Part shown: piece after piece, positions 3,643-17,682 of the stretch | Layout of the letters: the number at the start of each line of letters is the position of its first letter | Numbering within the stretch: the stretch's first letter is position 1 | NCBI GenBank assembly: GCA_044224495.1 | Contig: JBGAKG010000027.1 | Coordinates: 6,983-29,520 of the forward strand | DNA length: 22,538 bases | DNA from: Polyangiaceae bacterium | GTDB lineage: Bacteria; Myxococcota_A; Polyangia; Polyangiales; Polyangiaceae | Direction: 5' to 3' | The notes under the pieces: generated by a model | Database searches by the model: none | Told to the model about the DNA's origin: nothing | Seen by the model: the letters and a program-made list of their open reading frames with translations, nothing else | Translations under genes and position numbers: made by a program

Positions 3643-5952
3643 GTGCAGAAGACGATCACCCTCCCCGTCTCGGGCATGACCTGCGCGGCCTGTCAGGCCA
3701 ACGTGCAGCGCGCGCTCGTGAAGGCGCCCGGCGTCTCGGGCGCGGCGGTGAACCTCGCCACGCACTCGGCGCGGATCGAGTTCGACGACGCGGCGATCGC
3801 GCCGGAGGCGCTCGTCGAGCGGATCCGCGACGCCGGCTACGACGCCGAGCTCCCGCCCCCCGACGAGTCCGAGGCCGAAGCGGAAGAACGCGCCGACGCG
3901 CGCGACGCCGCCGAAGCACGGGAGGCACGCGCCACGCTCGTCAAGGCGCTCGTCTCGCTCGCGTTCGGCGCGATCGCGATGGTGATCTCGATGCCGCTCA
4001 TGACCGGGCACGAGCACGCAGCGCACGCGAGCGGCGATCCGTTCATGCGCGCGGCGGCCGGGGTGCTCGATCCGCCGCTCCGCGCCGCGTTGCCGTGGCT
4101 CTACGGCGCCCCGCGGAGCGCGCTCTGGTTGTCCCTCTTTGGGATGACCGTGATCACCATGGCGTGGGCCGGGCGCGAGATCTTCGTGCGCGGAGTGAAG
4201 AGCGCGCTCCACCGCACGCCCGACATGAACAGCCTCGTCGCGCTCGGGACCACCGCCGCGTTCGGCTACTCGGTCGCGGCGATGCTCTTCCCCGACGCGT
4301 TCCTGCGCGGGGGCGCCGCGCCCGATGCGTACTACGAGTCGGTCGTCTTCGTGATCGCGCTCGTGCTCCTGGGGCGCGCGCTCGAGGCGCGTGCTCGGCG
4401 CGCCGCGGCCCGGGCGCTCCACGCGCTGGCCGCGCTCCGGCCCGACGTGGCGCGAGTTCGGCGGGGCGACGCCATCGTCGAGGTCCCGTCGCGCGAGCTT
4501 CGCCCCGGCGACGAGCTGCAAGTGCGCCCCGGCGAGCGCTTCGCGGCGGACGGCACCGTCGCGGACGGCGCGGGCGACGTCGACGAGGCGTGGCTGACCG
4601 GGGAGTCGATGCCGGTGGCCAAGGCGACCGGCGACGCCGTGTTCGCCGGCACCGTGAACGGCTCGGCGGCGCTGCAGGTGCTGGTGACTCGGGCGCCGAG
4701 CGCGAGCCGCCTCGCGGGCGTGCTGCGGCTCCTCGGCGACGCGCAGGGCCGCCGCGCGCCGATCCAAGCGCTCGCCGATCGGGTGAGCCTGATCTTCGTG
4801 CCCACCGTCCTCGGTCTGGCGATCCTGGACTTCGTGGTCTGGCTCGCCGCGACGGGCTCGGTCGTCCGCGCGGCCGCCGCCGCCGTGAGCGTGCTCGTCA
4901 TCGCGTGCCCGTGTGCGATGGGCCTCGCGGTCCCGACCGCAGTGCTCGTGGCGACCGGCGGCGCGGCGCAGGTCGGGATCCTCCTCCGCGGCGGCGAGGC
5001 GATCGAGCGCTTGGCCGCGGCCGACGTCGTCGTCCTGGACAAGACCGGCACCGTGACGCTCGGTCGTCCCAAAGTGGTACAGTTCGAGCTGGTCCCGGGA
5101 GCCACGGTCGACCCGAGCGTGCTCCTGGCCGAGGCGGCCGCGATCGAGGCGGCCTCCGAGCACCCACTCGCGCGCGCCGTCGTCGCGCACGCCGAAGCCG
5201 AAGGCGTCACCGTCGTCCCCGCCAAGGGCGTTCGGGCGCTCCCGGGGCTCGGCGTCGAGCGTACGGTCGACGGCGTCGTGACGCGGATCGGCGCGCGCGC
5301 GCTGCTGGCCAGCGGAGCCGAGCTCCCGTGGCCGGCCACCGCCGGCGAGGTGCTCGTCGTCCGCGACGGCGCCGCGCTCGCGCGGTTCGTGCTCCAGGAC
5401 GAGGTGCGCCCCACGTCGGCCGACGCGGTGAAGGAGCTCGTCGCGCTCGGGCTCGAGGTCCACCTCGTGAGCGGCGACGCGGAGAGCGCGGTCGCGGCCG
5501 CGGCGCGCGCGGTCGGAATCGAGCGCTACCGCGCGAGCACGTCGCCCGAGGGCAAGCTCGCCGAGGTCGAGCGGCTCGGCGCGGCCGGCAAGCGCGTGGC
5601 GATGGTGGGGGACGGCATCAACGACGCCCCCGCGCTCGCCCGCGCGCACGTCGGGATCGCGATCGGCGGCGGGACCGACGTCGCGATGGAGGCCGCCGAC
5701 GCGACCCTCCTCGGCGGCGATCTCCGCGCGCTCCCCCGCGCCATCCGCTTGTCGCGACGGGCGATGCGGATCATGCGCGAGAACCTCGTCTGGGCCTTCG
5801 CCTACAACGTGCTCGGCATCCCGATCGCCGCGGGAGCGCTCTATCCTGCGTTCGGGATCCTGCTGAGCCCGATCCTCGCGAGCGCGGCGATGGCGGCGAG
5901 CTCGGTGAGCGTCGTCGGAAACAGCCTGCGCCTGAAGCAGAAGCCGAAGTAG
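3643..5952 (+). CDS. copA: Copper(I)-translocating P1B-type ATPase (CopA-like)
   Basis: N-terminal HMA domain with GMTCAAC, the CPC motif in the TM6 region, the DKTGT phosphorylation site, [10 protein letters not shown], and the YN (AFAYNVLG) and MAASS motifs typical of P1B-1 Cu+ pumps. It starts at a GTG. Confidence 0.9.
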
Positions 5953-13461: not shown

Positions 13462-13980
13462 TCAGGGTCGCGCGAACGAGAGCGCGAGCGTGACGGACGC
13501 CGACGGCGGCTTCGGCGGGCTGCTGCCGGGCAGCACGCCGTAGTACTTCGGGCCGCAATCGATGCAGTCGCTACCGAGATGGAACGGCGCGAAGCGCCCG
13601 TCACCGAGCTCGGCATCGACGCACGATTGAAGCGCGGGATCGGCGACGGTGACGTGCGACGTGCCGTCGTCGGGATGGGCGGTGACCTGGATGGCGGCGG
13701 TCGCGCCGGGCTCCATGCACGCGCAGAGCGCGACGTAGGAGGGCTCGAGGAAGCTCCGGACGAGTGGCGCGGGGAGCGCGATGGTGCCCTGAACGGACGG
13801 CACGCTCATCCCGGCCGCGCACGACCGAGCGTCGGCGCGATGAGGGGCGACACTGGGCGCAGGGGCCGCAACGACGCTGGCGCGCTCGGCACCGCCGCCC
13901 GAAGCGGGAGCCGCGACGATCGGGCGTTCGGAAGTGCAAGCAACGACGAGCGCGGACCCGACGAGAGCGCGAAGAACCAT
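13462..13980 (-). CDS. Hypothetical Cys-containing lipoprotein
   Basis: C-terminal 172 aa of ORF 13462..14595. The ATG at 13978-13980 gives MVLRALVGSALVVACTSERP. Six cysteines. Its stop abuts the stop of the convergent + gene at 13461. Confidence 0.6.
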   Translation of the reverse strand: MVLRALVGSALVVACTSERPIVAAPASGGGAERASVVAAPAPSVAPHRADARSCAAGMSVPSVQGTIALPAPLVRSFLEPSYVALCACMEPGATAAIQVTAHPDDGTSHVTVADPALQSCVDAELGDGRFAPFHLGSDCIDCGPKYYGVLPGSSPPKPPSASVTLALSFARP

Positions 13981-14053
13981 CACCGCAAAGACCCCAACGC
14001 GCGCCGAGTGTTCCCACCCGCTGGCGATTCGAACCGGCGCGCGCCACCCCGAA

Positions 14054-14067
14054 CCCTGGCGCGCCAG
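14054..14067. promoter_or_regulatory. Perfect 14-bp palindrome CCTGGCGCGCCAGG in the divergent marR/lipoprotein intergenic region
   Basis: Self-reverse-complementary when read directly. It is 106 nt upstream of the marR ATG. MarR regulators bind palindromic operators. Confidence 0.4.
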
Positions 14068-14135
14068 GCCCCCCCGCCCCCCCTCGCTCGCAGACGCGCG
14101 CCGGCGAACGAATTTTCGAGGGGGGTTGGGGGGGG
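14068..14135. repeat. Inverted homopolymeric tracts: C7-G-C7 (14068-14082) and G6-TT-G9 (14119-14135), separated by about 36 nt
   Basis: Direct reading. The two arms are roughly reverse complementary. They could form a long GC stem, or G-quadruplex / i-motif structures. Confidence 0.8.
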
Positions 14136-14172
14136 GCGCAGCGCTGGCTTCGTTCTTGCTGAGCCCCTCGAT

Positions 14173-14652
14173 ATGGACCGTGTTGCGTTCGACATTCGTC
14201 GCGCTGGGGTTGCCTACGCTGCTCGCGCCGCAAAGCTCCTTGGGCGCTGGAACTTCACGAACTCTCGCGTCGACGTGTTCGTGATTCATTCGAAGGTGCT
14301 CGCCCAGCACGGCGTCGTGCTCCAGACCGACTTGCGCGCGCGCCTCGGCATCTCGCGCTCGACCATGAGCCTCATGCTCACGCGTCTCGAGCGGCGCGGG
14401 TTCATCGAGCGACGCAGGGCCGAGCACGACCGCCGCAACATCGTCGTCATCATCACCGCGCTCGGTAGAGCGGTGTTCGACGAGCTGGTGTCGCGCGTCG
14501 GTCCGACGCTCTTCACGCCCTACGTCGACACCCAACTCTGGCTCCACGACCTGCGCACGAGCGTCGCGGTGCAGCGGGCACGCATCCTCCAGCACGTCGG
14601 CGCGATCCGCGAGTTGTTCGGCGACTCCTCGCGCGCACCCTACCCACCGTGA
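14173..14652 (+). CDS. MarR family transcriptional regulator
   Basis: Winged-helix signature LQTDLRARLGISRSTMSLMLTRLERRGFIERRRAEHDRRNIVVIITALG. The ATG at 14173 is in frame with ORF 13579..14652, whose upstream part is antisense to the lipoprotein gene and was rejected. Confidence 0.8.
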   Translation: MDRVAFDIRRAGVAYAARAAKLLGRWNFTNSRVDVFVIHSKVLAQHGVVLQTDLRARLGISRSTMSLMLTRLERRGFIERRRAEHDRRNIVVIITALGRAVFDELVSRVGPTLFTPYVDTQLWLHDLRTSVAVQRARILQHVGAIRELFGDSSRAPYPP

Positions 14653-14653
14653 C

Positions 14654-15523
14654 TCAGCGCTGCGCCGCGCGGATCGCTTTCTCTTCCTGACCCAGCGCGT
14701 GAATCACTTCGAGCGTCCGCTCGCTCACCCGCTTGAAGACCTTCGGGCTCCCCGGCTTCTCCAGGAGATCTCCGAAGTCCACCGGCGCCCCGAACACCAC
14801 GTTGATCGTCTCGCCCTTGCGCGTGAAGTTGCCCGCGACCTGCTTCGGCAGATCATTTCCCAATCCGTTGATGAACACCGGCAGCACCGGCACCCGCGCT
14901 TGGTGGATGATCCGGCCCACCCCGCTCTGCGCCGGCAGCAGCGTGTAGGGATCGTCGGTCTGGTTCCGCGTCCCTTCCGGGTGCAGCCCCACGAAGATCC
15001 CCGGACGCCGCAGGATGTTCGCCGTCTCGTCGAGGCTCGCGATGTTCAAGTGCGCCTGCTTCCGCTCCCGGAACACCGGCGGGTACATCGCGAAGAAGCT
15101 CATCACCCCGTTCACGAAGAAGCCGAGCGGCGCGTCGTAGAAGAAGTTCGAGCGCACCGGGAACAGGATCCGGTGCTTGAACCCCCGCTTCACCAGGTAC
15201 GCCGTGATCACGTACATGTCGAAGAAGCTGCGGTGGTTCGACACGCAGATGTAGCTCGACGACGGGTCGAGGTTCCCCAGCCGCTCCCGCCCGTGCACCT
15301 GCCGGATGTTGCGGGTGCAGAGCTCGATCCAGTTGCACCCGAACGTCCGCTGCCCGAACCGCAGCGCCCGGTTCAGGAGGTTCGGCTCCAGGCTCTTCTG
15401 AACGAACCGCACGTGCGCTCGCGTGATCGACGGCAGCTCGGGCGACAAGAGGTCGCCTGCCCGATCCTCCCGTGCCCCGCGGCCCGGCGCCGTCGGCGCA
15501 TTCGCTTTGATCTCGTGGTCCAT
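14654..15523 (-). CDS. Lysophospholipid (1-acyl-sn-glycerol-3-phosphate) acyltransferase, PlsC/LPLAT family
   Basis: HX4D motif NHRSFFD and PEGTR motif. The full ORF starts at ATG 15521-15523. Confidence 0.8.
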   Translation of the reverse strand: MDHEIKANAPTAPGRGAREDRAGDLLSPELPSITRAHVRFVQKSLEPNLLNRALRFGQRTFGCNWIELCTRNIRQVHGRERLGNLDPSSSYICVSNHRSFFDMYVITAYLVKRGFKHRILFPVRSNFFYDAPLGFFVNGVMSFFAMYPPVFRERKQAHLNIASLDETANILRRPGIFVGLHPEGTRNQTDDPYTLLPAQSGVGRIIHQARVPVLPVFINGLGNDLPKQVAGNFTRKGETINVVFGAPVDFGDLLEKPGSPKVFKRVSERTLEVIHALGQEEKAIRAAQR

Positions 15524-16002: not shown

Positions 16003-17682
16003 ATGGCCGAGGTCGACAAGATCATCGACATGCTCGAGGACGAGAGCATCGAAAAGCGCATCGCCGCCGCCATCGTGCTCGGCGAGCTCAAGGTGAAGAA
16101 GCCCGAGGCCCAAGAAGGCTTCCTCAAGCTCCTCCACAGCGGCGTCCCCGTCCTCCAACGCCACGGGCTCGAAGGCCTCACCCGCATCGGCGCCGCCAAG
16201 AAGGCGCTCAAGACGACCTTCCCGCTCCTCACCAGCTCCGTCGAAGACGTGCGCCGCGCCGCGGCCGCCGCCGTCCGCAGCGTCGGCGAAGACGTCGTCC
16301 CCATGATCCGCGCGCGCATGGGCGAAGCCCTCCCCGAGGAGCGCCGCGTGCTCGACGGCATCCTCGCCGAGCTCGGCGGGAAGGATGCATTCTCCACGCT
16401 TCTCGCCAGCCTAACTTCGAGCGAGGGCGAAGCCGCCAAGGCCGCCGCGCTCGCGGTTCGCCAACACGTGAAGGACGCCGGCGCCCGCGAGCGAAAGAGC
16501 TACCGCGCCGCGACCGAGAAGTTCCTCGAGTCGCAGAAGAAGACCAAGCTCAACCCCGGCGGTTCTCCGACGGCCATCGCCGCCGCGATCAAGATCCTCG
16601 GCTACCTCGAGGACGACGAAGCGCTCCCCACCCTCCTCGCCTACGCGACCAGCAAGGACGCACCCGCCGTCGTCAAGCAAGAGGCCCTCATCGCGATGCG
16701 CTTCGCGCTCGGTGACGCCAAGGGCAGCGTCAAGGTCATCAACGCCCTCGTCGACGCCGCCGAAGGCGCCGATCGCTCGCTCGCGCACACCGCGCTCCAC
16801 ACGCTCGGCTCACTCGAGGTCCCCGCGTCCGCGATGACGCGCTTCGAGAAGCTCCTCGCCCACGTCGACATCGAACGCGCCCGCTTCGCCGCCGCCTACC
16901 TCGCCGGACAGAAATCGCCGGCCGCGCTGAAGGCGCTCATCGGCGTCATCACCGACTCCCCCGAGCGCCGCCGCGCCGAGCTCGTCGCCGAGCTCCTGAA
17001 CACGCGCGAAGACGCCGCCGGCGCCCTGACCGACGCGCTCCTCGAGACCAAGGACCCCGACCGCGCGTGGCTCATCCGCAAGATCGTCGGCCAACCCTCG
17101 TTCGCCAAGAAGCTCCCACCCAAGGTCCGCAAGGAGCTCCTCGAGACCGGGCTCAAGCGGCTCGAGAAGGGCGACCGCAACTGGGAGCCGATGCTCGACG
17201 TCGTTCAGGTCGCCGATCCCGAGACGTATGCCGACGCGCTGCGCACCTTGTCGCAGAAGCTGCGCCGCAACGGGAACGACGAGAAGGCGCAGACCGTCCT
17301 CGGCCTCCTCCTCCGCTGCGAGAAGGCGACCGACGCCGATCGCTTCGCCCTCGCCGTGATCGAGCTCAAGAAGAGCAAGAAGGACACCCGTCCCGCCATT
17401 CGCAACGGCGACGGTGCTCTTCATCGCCTGAGCGGCCTGCTCGCGCGCGGCTTCGATCTGGCGAGCTCGCTCAAGAAGGAGCGTACGCTCGAGCTCGACG
17501 ACCTCTACTACGTCGGCTTCCACTTCACCGAGCTGGGTGTCGGAGGAGGCGGGGGCGGGGGTGGCGCTGCCGCACGGGCGGGGGACGTGGGGGAAGAGCT
17601 GCTCCAGCACGTGGTCGACAAAGGCGGCCGGACCAAGGTGGGGAAAGCCGCGAAGAACAAGTTGGAGCTCTCGAGCGCTTGA
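16003..17682 (+). CDS. HEAT/PBS-lyase repeat protein with a C-terminal poly-Gly tract
   Basis: Repeated helical units (EKRIAAAIVLGEL, VRRAAAAAVRSVG, ALIAMRFALGD). GAAAGG SD 8 nt upstream. GVGGGGGGGGAAARAGD encoded at about 17536-17570. Confidence 0.7.
   Translation: MAEVDKIIDMLEDESIEKRIAAAIVLGELKVKKPEAQEGFLKLLHSGVPVLQRHGLEGLTRIGAAKKALKTTFPLLTSSVEDVRRAAAAAVRSVGEDVVPMIRARMGEALPEERRVLDGILAELGGKDAFSTLLASLTSSEGEAAKAAALAVRQHVKDAGARERKSYRAATEKFLESQKKTKLNPGGSPTAIAAAIKILGYLEDDEALPTLLAYATSKDAPAVVKQEALIAMRFALGDAKGSVKVINALVDAAEGADRSLAHTALHTLGSLEVPASAMTRFEKLLAHVDIERARFAAAYLAGQKSPAALKALIGVITDSPERRRAELVAELLNTREDAAGALTDALLETKDPDRAWLIRKIVGQPSFAKKLPPKVRKELLETGLKRLEKGDRNWEPMLDVVQVADPETYADALRTLSQKLRRNGNDEKAQTVLGLLLRCEKATDADRFALAVIELKKSKKDTRPAIRNGDGALHRLSGLLARGFDLASSLKKERTLELDDLYYVGFHFTELGVGGGGGGGGAAARAGDVGEELLQHVVDKGGRTKVGKAAKNKLELSSA

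Follow-up and report, generated by a model that had tools for sequence, protein, structure and literature searches.

The DNA analysed here is a stretch of 22,538 nucleotides from a Polyangiaceae bacterium (GenBank assembly GCA_044224495.1, contig JBGAKG010000027.1, positions 6,983 to 29,520 of the forward strand), hereafter called the window, with position 1 at its first letter. Upstream of marR, a gene for a MarR-family regulator, it carries two long homopolymeric tracts, C7GC7 and G6TTG9, together with a perfect 14-bp palindrome. Comparison with orthologous loci led us to propose, with a probability of about 0.55, that the tracts belong to a marR control region laid out as an enhancer-dependent sigma-54 promoter with a structured spacer. 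In this model, two GCGCGCCAC motifs (three or four elsewhere), placed on one helical face at about -130 and -110, would bind an activator and/or MarR. Next would come a spacer of 65-91 bp that includes an A/T block and that the seven closer orthologs maintain as an imperfect inverted repeat around GCCGGC, its outer arms being homopolymeric here. A -24/-12 element, CTGGC-N7-TTGCT, would follow, and transcription would start 1-2 nt before the ATG, producing a leaderless marR mRNA.

Orthologous marR loci

Homologs of the MarR protein numbered 11 among 5.8 billion sequences. Ten of the 11 are full-length, with 63-71% identity and the same N-terminus, and the remaining one, P0012 (51%), was called short. 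Upstream regions were compared over a set of eight loci, namely the window, L049, L001, L051, L056, L052, L054 and L055, with MarR identities to the window of 51-71%. L055 is the most distant, and the seven closer orthologs are the set without it; L051 and L056 are closely related to each other. For three of these loci a second assembly of the same sequence was available (L017 for the window, L050 for L049 and L053 for L052). The upstream regions of the orthologs present at NCBI only (P0003, P0004, P0005, P0006 and P0009) were outside the comparison. L001, a locus from a Polyangiaceae metagenome-assembled genome, was the sole true ortholog locus in a scan of genome contigs with the MarR alignment; the scan of metagenome contigs returned distant MarR proteins only, and no orthologs.

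Synteny between L049 and the window extends to both sides of marR. L001 and L052 have an unrelated, co-directional gene upstream, and the module described below directly follows its stop codon. From reading its sequence, we take the L001 upstream gene to be bactofilin-like. The upstream layout is alike in all eight loci despite these differing neighbours, which argues that the module belongs to marR, and not to the lipoprotein gene found upstream of it in the window or to a divergent promoter. The original prediction, made from the letters of the window, had placed the tracts in a divergent promoter region, between a lipoprotein gene on the minus strand (start at 13980) and marR (start at 14173). 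Both genes are where it put them. The divergent promoter itself was given up, because the module stays with marR where the upstream gene is co-directional, and because a separate candidate promoter, farther left, is available to the lipoprotein gene.

The gene call of P0012 in L055 is too late (418-492): an in-frame ATGGACCGAGTC (MDRV...) situated 75 nt upstream matches the conserved N-terminus, and the corrected start is preceded by TGGA-N7-CTGCA at the distance usual in the marR family. Sequencing run SRR28480385 (Logan) gave both L017 and L056, whose MarR proteins are respectively 100% and 64% identical to that of the window, so that the sample is a mixed one, in which two or more related Polyangia-like organisms are present.

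A predicted sigma-54 promoter and a leaderless start

The promoter predicted for marR, CTGGCTTCGTTCTTGCT, is located at 14144-14160 on the plus strand, with the -24 TGGC at 14145-14148 and the -12 TTGC at 14156-14159. Its GG and GC are 10 nt apart, and TGGC, TTGC, the 5' Y and the 3' W match YTGGCACG-N4-TTGCW. The sigma-54 consensus of M. xanthus is TGGCACG-N4-TTGC(T/A) (PMC7910581). YTGG-N9-TGCW was found in all eight orthologs, TGGC and TTGCT being invariant in seven of them. The spacer between these two blocks is fixed at 7 nt while its sequence varies (TTCGTTC, TCACTTG, TCCGTTC, CTCGAAG). L055, the most distant ortholog, has TGGA-N7-CTGCA, with GG and GC kept and at the same distance from the ATG. 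A spacer of fixed length and drifting sequence fits contacts at -24 and -12, and would fit neither a U-rich terminator tail nor a generic leader. A consensus scan of 13700-14500 revealed no sigma-70-like promoter. We conclude that a sigma-54 promoter upstream of marR is a rather probable prediction, more so than the complete model.

With C14159 as the -12, the predicted transcription start is at about 14171, and the ATG of marR is at 14173-14175 on the plus strand. In each of the eight orthologs, the -12 C is 13-14 nt away from the A of the ATG (the L055 distance was recounted by hand), and the 12 or 13 nt separating the promoter element from the ATG are not conserved. Taking the C as -12 puts the start 1-2 nt ahead of the ATG throughout the eight orthologs, and a leaderless marR mRNA is predicted. 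Three other observations fit this prediction: the start codon is always ATG, the orthologs share no Shine-Dalgarno sequence, and a conserved in-frame start farther upstream is ruled out by a 1-nt indel in L054. Leaderless mRNAs (leaders of 5 nt at most) have been proposed for myxobacteria (PMC12754779). The features that define an enhancer-dependent sigma-54 promoter would be present here as far as sequence goes, those of function not yet.

Repeated sites upstream of the promoter

Two sites precede the spacer. Site 1, CGGCGCGCGCCACCC (14035-14049), contains a 10-bp palindrome, GGCGCGCGCC, and a block, CGCGCCACCC (14040-14049), that is invariant in an alignment of 6 distinct orthologous regions. 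It has one mismatch to TGGCGCGCGCCA; in L049, L051 and L001 it is a perfect palindrome of 12-16 bp, (G)TGGCGCGCGCCAC(C). Site 2 is the perfect 14-bp palindrome CCTGGCGCGCCAGG, whose CGCCA core (14062-14066) is invariant by reading and alignment. Present and perfect as the original prediction had it, this palindrome occupies 14055-14068, and not 14054-14067, a shift of one base. L017 starts within palindrome 2, the short-read assembly having broken there.

The CGCCA of site 2 sits 20-21 bp after that of site 1 (20 bp in the window), and CGCCA motifs recur every 10-11 or 20-21 bp in the seven closer orthologs. Three or four of them, at a spacing of 10-11 bp, are present in L051, L052, L054 and L056, and L055 has one CGCCA plus related TGGCGCGCC palindromes. 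The GCGCGCCAC motifs of the window are in helical phase at about -127 and -107; overall, the phased repeats extend from about -105 to -148. Activator sites of sigma-54 promoters usually have this form and occupy such a position, some 80-150 bp upstream.

Taken alone, a 14-bp palindrome is at chance level, as 6 perfect palindromes of at least 14 bp were observed in the window for 6.7 expected. Further copies of TGGCGCGCGCCA are not enriched in the window either (6 versus 9.2 expected), and inverted repeats with arms of a length comparable to that of the spacer repeat are common in it (44 pairs). It is only their conservation in other species that makes the palindrome and the stem significant. 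At 2770-2785, a perfect palindrome of 16 bp, TGGCGGCGCGCCGCCA, resembles site 1 and its L054 variant. It lies inside a coding region (open reading frame (ORF) start at about 2653) and was dropped as probably coincidental.

Since the palindrome is one copy of a repeated motif, GCGCGCCAC(C), that is conserved, a protein very probably binds to it, and the GCGCGCCAC repeats would probably bind an NtrC-type enhancer-binding protein and/or MarR itself. The operator proposed in the original prediction is retained to this extent, with either MarR or an activator as the possible binder. Given the position of the sites, about -105 to -130 from the -24/-12 element, a site for an enhancer-binding protein would fit at least as well as a MarR operator. 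A MarR operator usually overlaps the promoter of the gene that it controls; sites 1 and 2 are dyad-symmetric and conserved, but are clear of the predicted core promoter. A pair of dyads spaced by two helical turns is a typical arrangement for MarR too, so that the sites could equally be autoregulatory operators. A promoter of the extracytoplasmic function (ECF) or sigma-70 type inside the GCGCGCCAC repeats or the A/T block was considered and rejected, no conserved -10-like element being visible by eye.

The spacer as an inverted repeat

The C7GC7 tract, CCCCCCCGCCCCCCC (14069-14083), lies directly 3' of palindrome CCTGGCGCGCCAGG, and the G6TTG9 tract, GGGGGGTTGGGGGGGGG (14120-14136), holds the longest homopolymer of the window. 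Direct reading and a script both confirmed the two tracts and the 36 nt that separate them. Counted from the predicted start, they extend from -102 to -88 and from -51 to -35, respectively. All G/C runs of at least 7 in the 22.5-kb window, whose base composition is about 70% G+C, are confined to this region, and four runs of at least 6 inside 100 bp, as found here, were obtained in none of 300 first-order Markov simulations. The homopolymer cluster is a genuine local anomaly. Elsewhere in the window only 2 G/C runs of at least 6 are found (at 3856 and 7853), for a whole-window expectation of about 10 from first-order composition; this scarcity suggests a general avoidance of such runs in this genome.

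From site 2 to the -24 element, the spacer measures 78 bp in the window (14067-14144) and 65-91 bp across orthologs. It contains a hairpin-capable imperfect inverted repeat at 14068-14137, composed of a C-rich left arm, a central GCCGGC, an A/T block and a G-rich right arm. The GCCGGC (14100-14105), invariant in the alignment, lies exactly halfway from the C tract to the G tract. Its distance from site 2 is nearly constant (33-36 nt), but its distance to the -24 element varies, four loci having 34-39 nt and the other three 47-49 nt. The A/T block with the start of the right arm, GAATTTTCGA (14110-14119, about -60 to -52), belongs to a family motif seen in the alignments, AAWTTT(C)GAGGG, which runs to 14125. 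The block is a candidate site for a bend or an architectural protein; compared by eye with the E. coli consensus for integration host factor (IHF), it showed no match. C7GC7 and G6TTG9 are the outer left and right arms of the repeat in this genome.

One long hairpin centred on GCCGGC was found in the minimum free energy folds of the window, L049, L001, L052 and L054. The stem amounts to -47.7 kcal/mol for the 78-nt spacer, and larger intergenic segments gave -68.5 (136-nt segment, plus strand) and -99.3 kcal/mol (minus strand). Compared to dinucleotide shuffles the gain is modest, with z from -1.0 to -1.4 for the larger intergenic segments; the 78-nt spacer gave z=-1.6 on one strand and -2.6 on the other. 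As dinucleotide shuffles keep the C-rich and G-rich composition, this test was replaced by arm-wise shuffles and cross-species covariation. With each arm shuffled separately, so that its own composition is kept, z was -2.5 for the window, and the Stouffer z over 6 orthologs was -5.9. Including L056 as well changed it to about -5.8, and leaving out L054, the locus with the strongest signal, to about -3.9. Individual orthologs ranged from -0.8 to -5.8.

RNAalifold run on plain MAFFT alignments, made with no regard to the structure, recovered the same hairpin, with compensatory changes in 14 of 24 and 11 of 17 pairs. Paired cells made up 76-80% of the total, versus 62-63% when partners were shuffled within columns (0 of 500 shuffles reached this value), and 11-14 pairs were changed on both sides (1 of 500). 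The covariation score was 0.44-0.53, versus 0.20-0.21 after shuffling (0 of 500), and the slid control registers all stayed at or below 0.27. The innermost helix was 91-93% paired, and three of its five pairs were changed on both sides. Because these tests use the very alignments that yielded the structure, and because those have only 6-7 sequences, with L051 and L056 close to each other, we consider the signal good, not final; the complementarity of the arms exceeds the share due to composition. The tracts had been proposed originally as roughly complementary arms of a very stable stem, and this part of the prediction holds: the potential to form the stem is conserved, with compensatory changes, in the orthologs.

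The arms themselves differ between species. They read C7GC7TCG / CGAG6TTG9 in the window, CCCGACCT(AT)CCCTC / GAGGGAGGTCGGG in L054, CTGCCC / GGGCAG plus C8 / G6 in L052, and GGGGCCCTCT / AGAGGGG...CCCC in L049. Likewise, the flanks of GCCGGC vary yet complement each other (C-G, TC-GA, TGGGA-TCCCA, TT-AA, AC-GT and TTTCGGGG-CCCCGAAA). Close orthologs all carry C-runs (6-8) or G-runs (6-7) at this place, with differing lengths and sometimes swapped polarity. Between species, what is kept is arm complementarity, not a long homopolymer. C/T-rich stretches (CCCCCTCTCCTCTC, CCTTCCGCTCCTTTCC, CCCCCTCC) lie between the hairpin and the -24 element in L051, L054, L052 and L056, where they fill the extra spacer; they resemble the CT-rich 'insulator' motifs within sigma-54 promoters that are described in an excerpt of an earlier report (bioRxiv 10.1101/086108).

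The model and its alternatives

The structured spacer could determine how the upstream-bound protein and the sigma-54 holoenzyme make contact, through the geometry of this contact or through its accessibility. The repeat would then act as a bendable or protein-bound symmetric DNA element, and it might also block transcription coming from either side. A bolder version, which we regard as a long shot, makes the repeat a structural switch: under the effect of supercoiling or of passing transcription, the repeat would extrude as a hairpin or cruciform, which would remove about 70 bp of spacer and either bring the enhancer-bound protein next to the promoter or take it off its face, the C/G arms letting the stem slide in register. 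If so, the distance between enhancer and promoter would be controlled by DNA secondary structure, and this control would feed a leaderless regulator mRNA.

Several points weigh against the sigma-54 model or parts of it. Positions 5-7 of the -24 element are TTC, versus ACG in the canonical sequence. The TGGC-N7-TTGC motif is found once in the window, and 32% of shuffles give one per 22.5 kb; it is thus common by chance, and the promoter call rests wholly on conservation. No gene for an enhancer-binding protein is present in the 22.5-kb window. The helical phasing of the upstream unit relative to the -24 element is not tight, the bimodal distances mentioned above (34-39 versus 47-49 nt) being at most suggestive. 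The hairpins of L049 and L056 are weak (z about -0.8), and a GC-rich centre should slow cruciform extrusion. Covariation that preserves pairing is a classic sign of RNA or of single strands, and the sigma-54 model leaves the repeat upstream of the transcript, with no obvious route to a single-stranded state; on the plus strand, cells of the G·U type are more numerous than those of the A·C type (9 versus 4), which is not significant and hints at a plus-strand RNA. What the comparison of loci shows is the sequence layout, its conservation in eight orthologs and the covariation of the arms, from which sigma-54 dependence, the start site, a repeat-binding protein and the role of the inverted repeat are inferred.

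The last points on pairing lead to the alternative that survives best, although we hold it unlikely, in which the hairpin is transcribed. Either marR would have a structured 5' leader, transcribed from an unrecognised upstream promoter and carrying the TGGC...TTGCT block as a leader motif, or the hairpin would be a bidirectional terminator or insulator devoid of U-tail, halting transcripts that arrive from upstream genes or, in antisense, from the convergent gene. Besides the compensatory changes, the G·U-type excess and the high stability of the stem, in the 78-nt spacer and in the larger intergenic segments, this explanation would make sense of the module following directly the stop codon of a co-directional gene in L001 and L052, and of the convergent gene abutting marR, whose antisense transcript would meet the hairpin first. 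Against a leader, no conserved promoter-like sequence was found 5' of the stem, the upstream gene being divergent in at least three loci and the upstream DNA being unrelated coding sequence elsewhere; such a leader would also have no conserved Shine-Dalgarno sequence. Against a terminator, a U-run follows the stem on neither strand, and a terminator scan of 13700-14500 was empty. The nearest T-rich stretch, TTCGTTCTT, starts 12 nt past the stem and is not conserved as T-rich, and the 7 nt between TGGC and TTGCT are not U-rich in L049 and L054. Rfam gave nothing at the gathering score over the window, and only chance miRNA and lncRNA matches (E>2) in 13900-14260.

Less likely still, in our view, is a spacer with no selected function. 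It would be a GC-rich low-complexity sequence whose complementarity arises from slippage and template-switch correction, only the flanking sites and the promoter being under selection. Template-switch correction of quasi-palindromes is an established mutational process. The free variation of arm sequences and run lengths across species, the uneven strength of the hairpin (z from -0.8 to -5.8) and the frequency of inverted repeats with similar arms in this genome are what such a spacer would show. It is harder to reconcile with a repeat kept in the same place, with the same invariant GCCGGC 33-36 nt from site 2, across MarR proteins that are about 63-71% identical, and the scarcity of G/C runs elsewhere in the window indicates that such runs are not tolerated everywhere.

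The original prediction had raised the possibility of phase variation. In such a contingency locus, slippage in one of the runs (G9, G6 or C7) would turn the expression of marR, of the lipoprotein gene or of both on and off. We find this highly improbable. It is true that G9, the longest run of the window, is long enough to slip, that run lengths vary across species, and that the tracts are placed between the upstream sites and the -24 element, where a change in length would rotate one relative to the other. However, the tracts are outside the core-promoter spacer and the ORFs, several orthologs have no run above 6-7, and it is complementarity, not run length, that is conserved. Moreover, orthologs tolerate spacers of 65-91 bp without tight phasing, which makes a 1-bp switch unlikely. 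The comparison of tract lengths proposed with the original prediction gave identical tracts in the three assembly pairs (window/L017, L049/L050 and L052/L053), a weak test, as n=3 and the assemblies are consensus sequences that possibly share reads. The sole literature match on homopolymeric phase variation in myxobacteria, in the excerpt available, concerns low-complexity protein regions.

A functional G-quadruplex (G4) or i-motif, also suggested originally and in which the minus-strand G7CG7 or G6TTG9 would modulate the promoter, is scarcely credible: the complement of C7GC7 does form an ideal G3-N1-G3-N1-G3-N1-G3, one of only two canonical motifs in the window, but G6TTG9 is non-canonical, with three usable G3 runs only, a canonical motif is found at the equivalent position in just 3 of the 8 orthologs (window, L049 and L052), and with a complementary tract at a distance of 36 nt, duplex or hairpin is favoured over G4. 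The other canonical G4 motif of the window is at about 15485 (minus strand), near the 5' end of the acyltransferase gene.

Comparison with known systems

The sigma-54 promoter class is abundant in myxobacteria (PMC12754779, PMC7910581). The marR region resembles known members of the class, such as E. coli glnAp2 with NtrC, or M. xanthus katB with PexR and the Nla28 targets, in its -24 GG and -12 GC at canonical spacing, in having at least two repeated, part-palindromic sites about 100-130 bp upstream on one helical face, and in the A/T stretch between sites and promoter, at the usual place of an IHF site or intrinsic bend. Repeated palindromes upstream of the sigma-54 promoter are known for M. 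xanthus PexR and Nla28 (PMC12754779, PMC7910581). Unlike in these systems, the promoter, activator and start site of marR are predicted only, the start being 1-2 nt from the ATG, and the spacer is a covarying GC-rich inverted repeat instead of an IHF site.

MarR autoregulation offers a second comparison. As with sites I and II of E. coli marO, two similar dyads about two helical turns apart precede a MarR gene, and here they are conserved together with a conserved DNA-binding domain. In contrast to marO, the sites are about 105-130 bp upstream of the predicted start, off the core promoter, and some orthologs have 3-4 direct CGCCA repeats at 10-bp spacing; an operator role is putative here. The ospC operator of Borrelia burgdorferi, as far as excerpts of the report describe it, is a large inverted repeat lying directly upstream of an alternative-sigma promoter, implicated in control and possibly sensitive to supercoiling (PMC3700930). 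It may be seen as a loose functional analogue: judged from these excerpts, it differs in organism, in sigma factor (RpoS) and in composition, the marR repeat being GC-rich, with homopolymeric ends, and placed between the sites and the promoter. The contingency loci of Neisseria, Haemophilus, Campylobacter and Helicobacter share with the window a G9 run in a regulatory region. They differ from it in that the marR run has no length polymorphism in the available assemblies, is outside -10/-35 and -12/-24 spacers and ORFs, is paired with a complementary C tract, and belongs to a soil myxobacterium with a large genome.

If the model is correct, a small Polyangiaceae-like clade transcribes a MarR-type regulator as a leaderless mRNA from an enhancer-dependent sigma-54 promoter. 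We met no description of a MarR gene combining leaderless and sigma-54-dependent expression, and a literature search found no work joining sigma-54, inverted repeat, enhancer-binding protein and Myxococcus. The spacer would be selected for self-complementarity and not for its sequence, and would provide a compact case for a role of spacer structure in enhancer-promoter communication. The eye-catching homopolymers are one species' form of a conserved inverted repeat, and run length alone is no ground for assuming phase variation in a GC-rich soil bacterium.

Flanking genes and other observations

The palindrome and the two tracts lie in the intergenic gap of 192 bp between the start of the minus-strand ORF (13980) and that of marR (14173). 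The minus-strand ORF, with its ATG at 13980, has a lipobox-like N-terminus, MVLRALVGSALVVAC, which resembles a lipoprotein signal, and its product shares 72% identity with that of a called gene in the syntenic locus L049. A candidate ECF-type promoter for this gene, GGGAAC-N17-GTCT, is common to the window (13989-14015, minus strand) and L049 (about 2817-2843). In both, GTCT is 8 nt before the ATG, so that the lipoprotein mRNA would also be nearly leaderless. Site 1 is to the right of this candidate promoter, and the C/G tracts are no part of it.

The marR gene (14173-14652, plus strand) encodes 159 aa and matches the Pfam MarR family with E=1.3e-11; searches of the protein against NCBIfam and PDB gave generic MarR matches only. 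A 1-nt gap separates it from a convergent gene on the minus strand (window 14652-14654), which encodes an acyltransferase (PF01553). A convergent gene abuts marR in L049 (3480-3487), L051, L052, L054 and L056 as well, the ends being 1-20 nt apart. It is again an acyltransferase of family PF01553 in L049, and carries PF05157 (MshEN) in L056; in L051, L052 and L054 it is cut off and has no score. Ends so close leave no room for a terminator, and each transcript must enter the other gene in antisense orientation.

Farther downstream, the HEAT-repeat protein encoded at 16003-17682 has a run of ten glycines, GVGGGGGGGGAAARAG, near its C-terminus.

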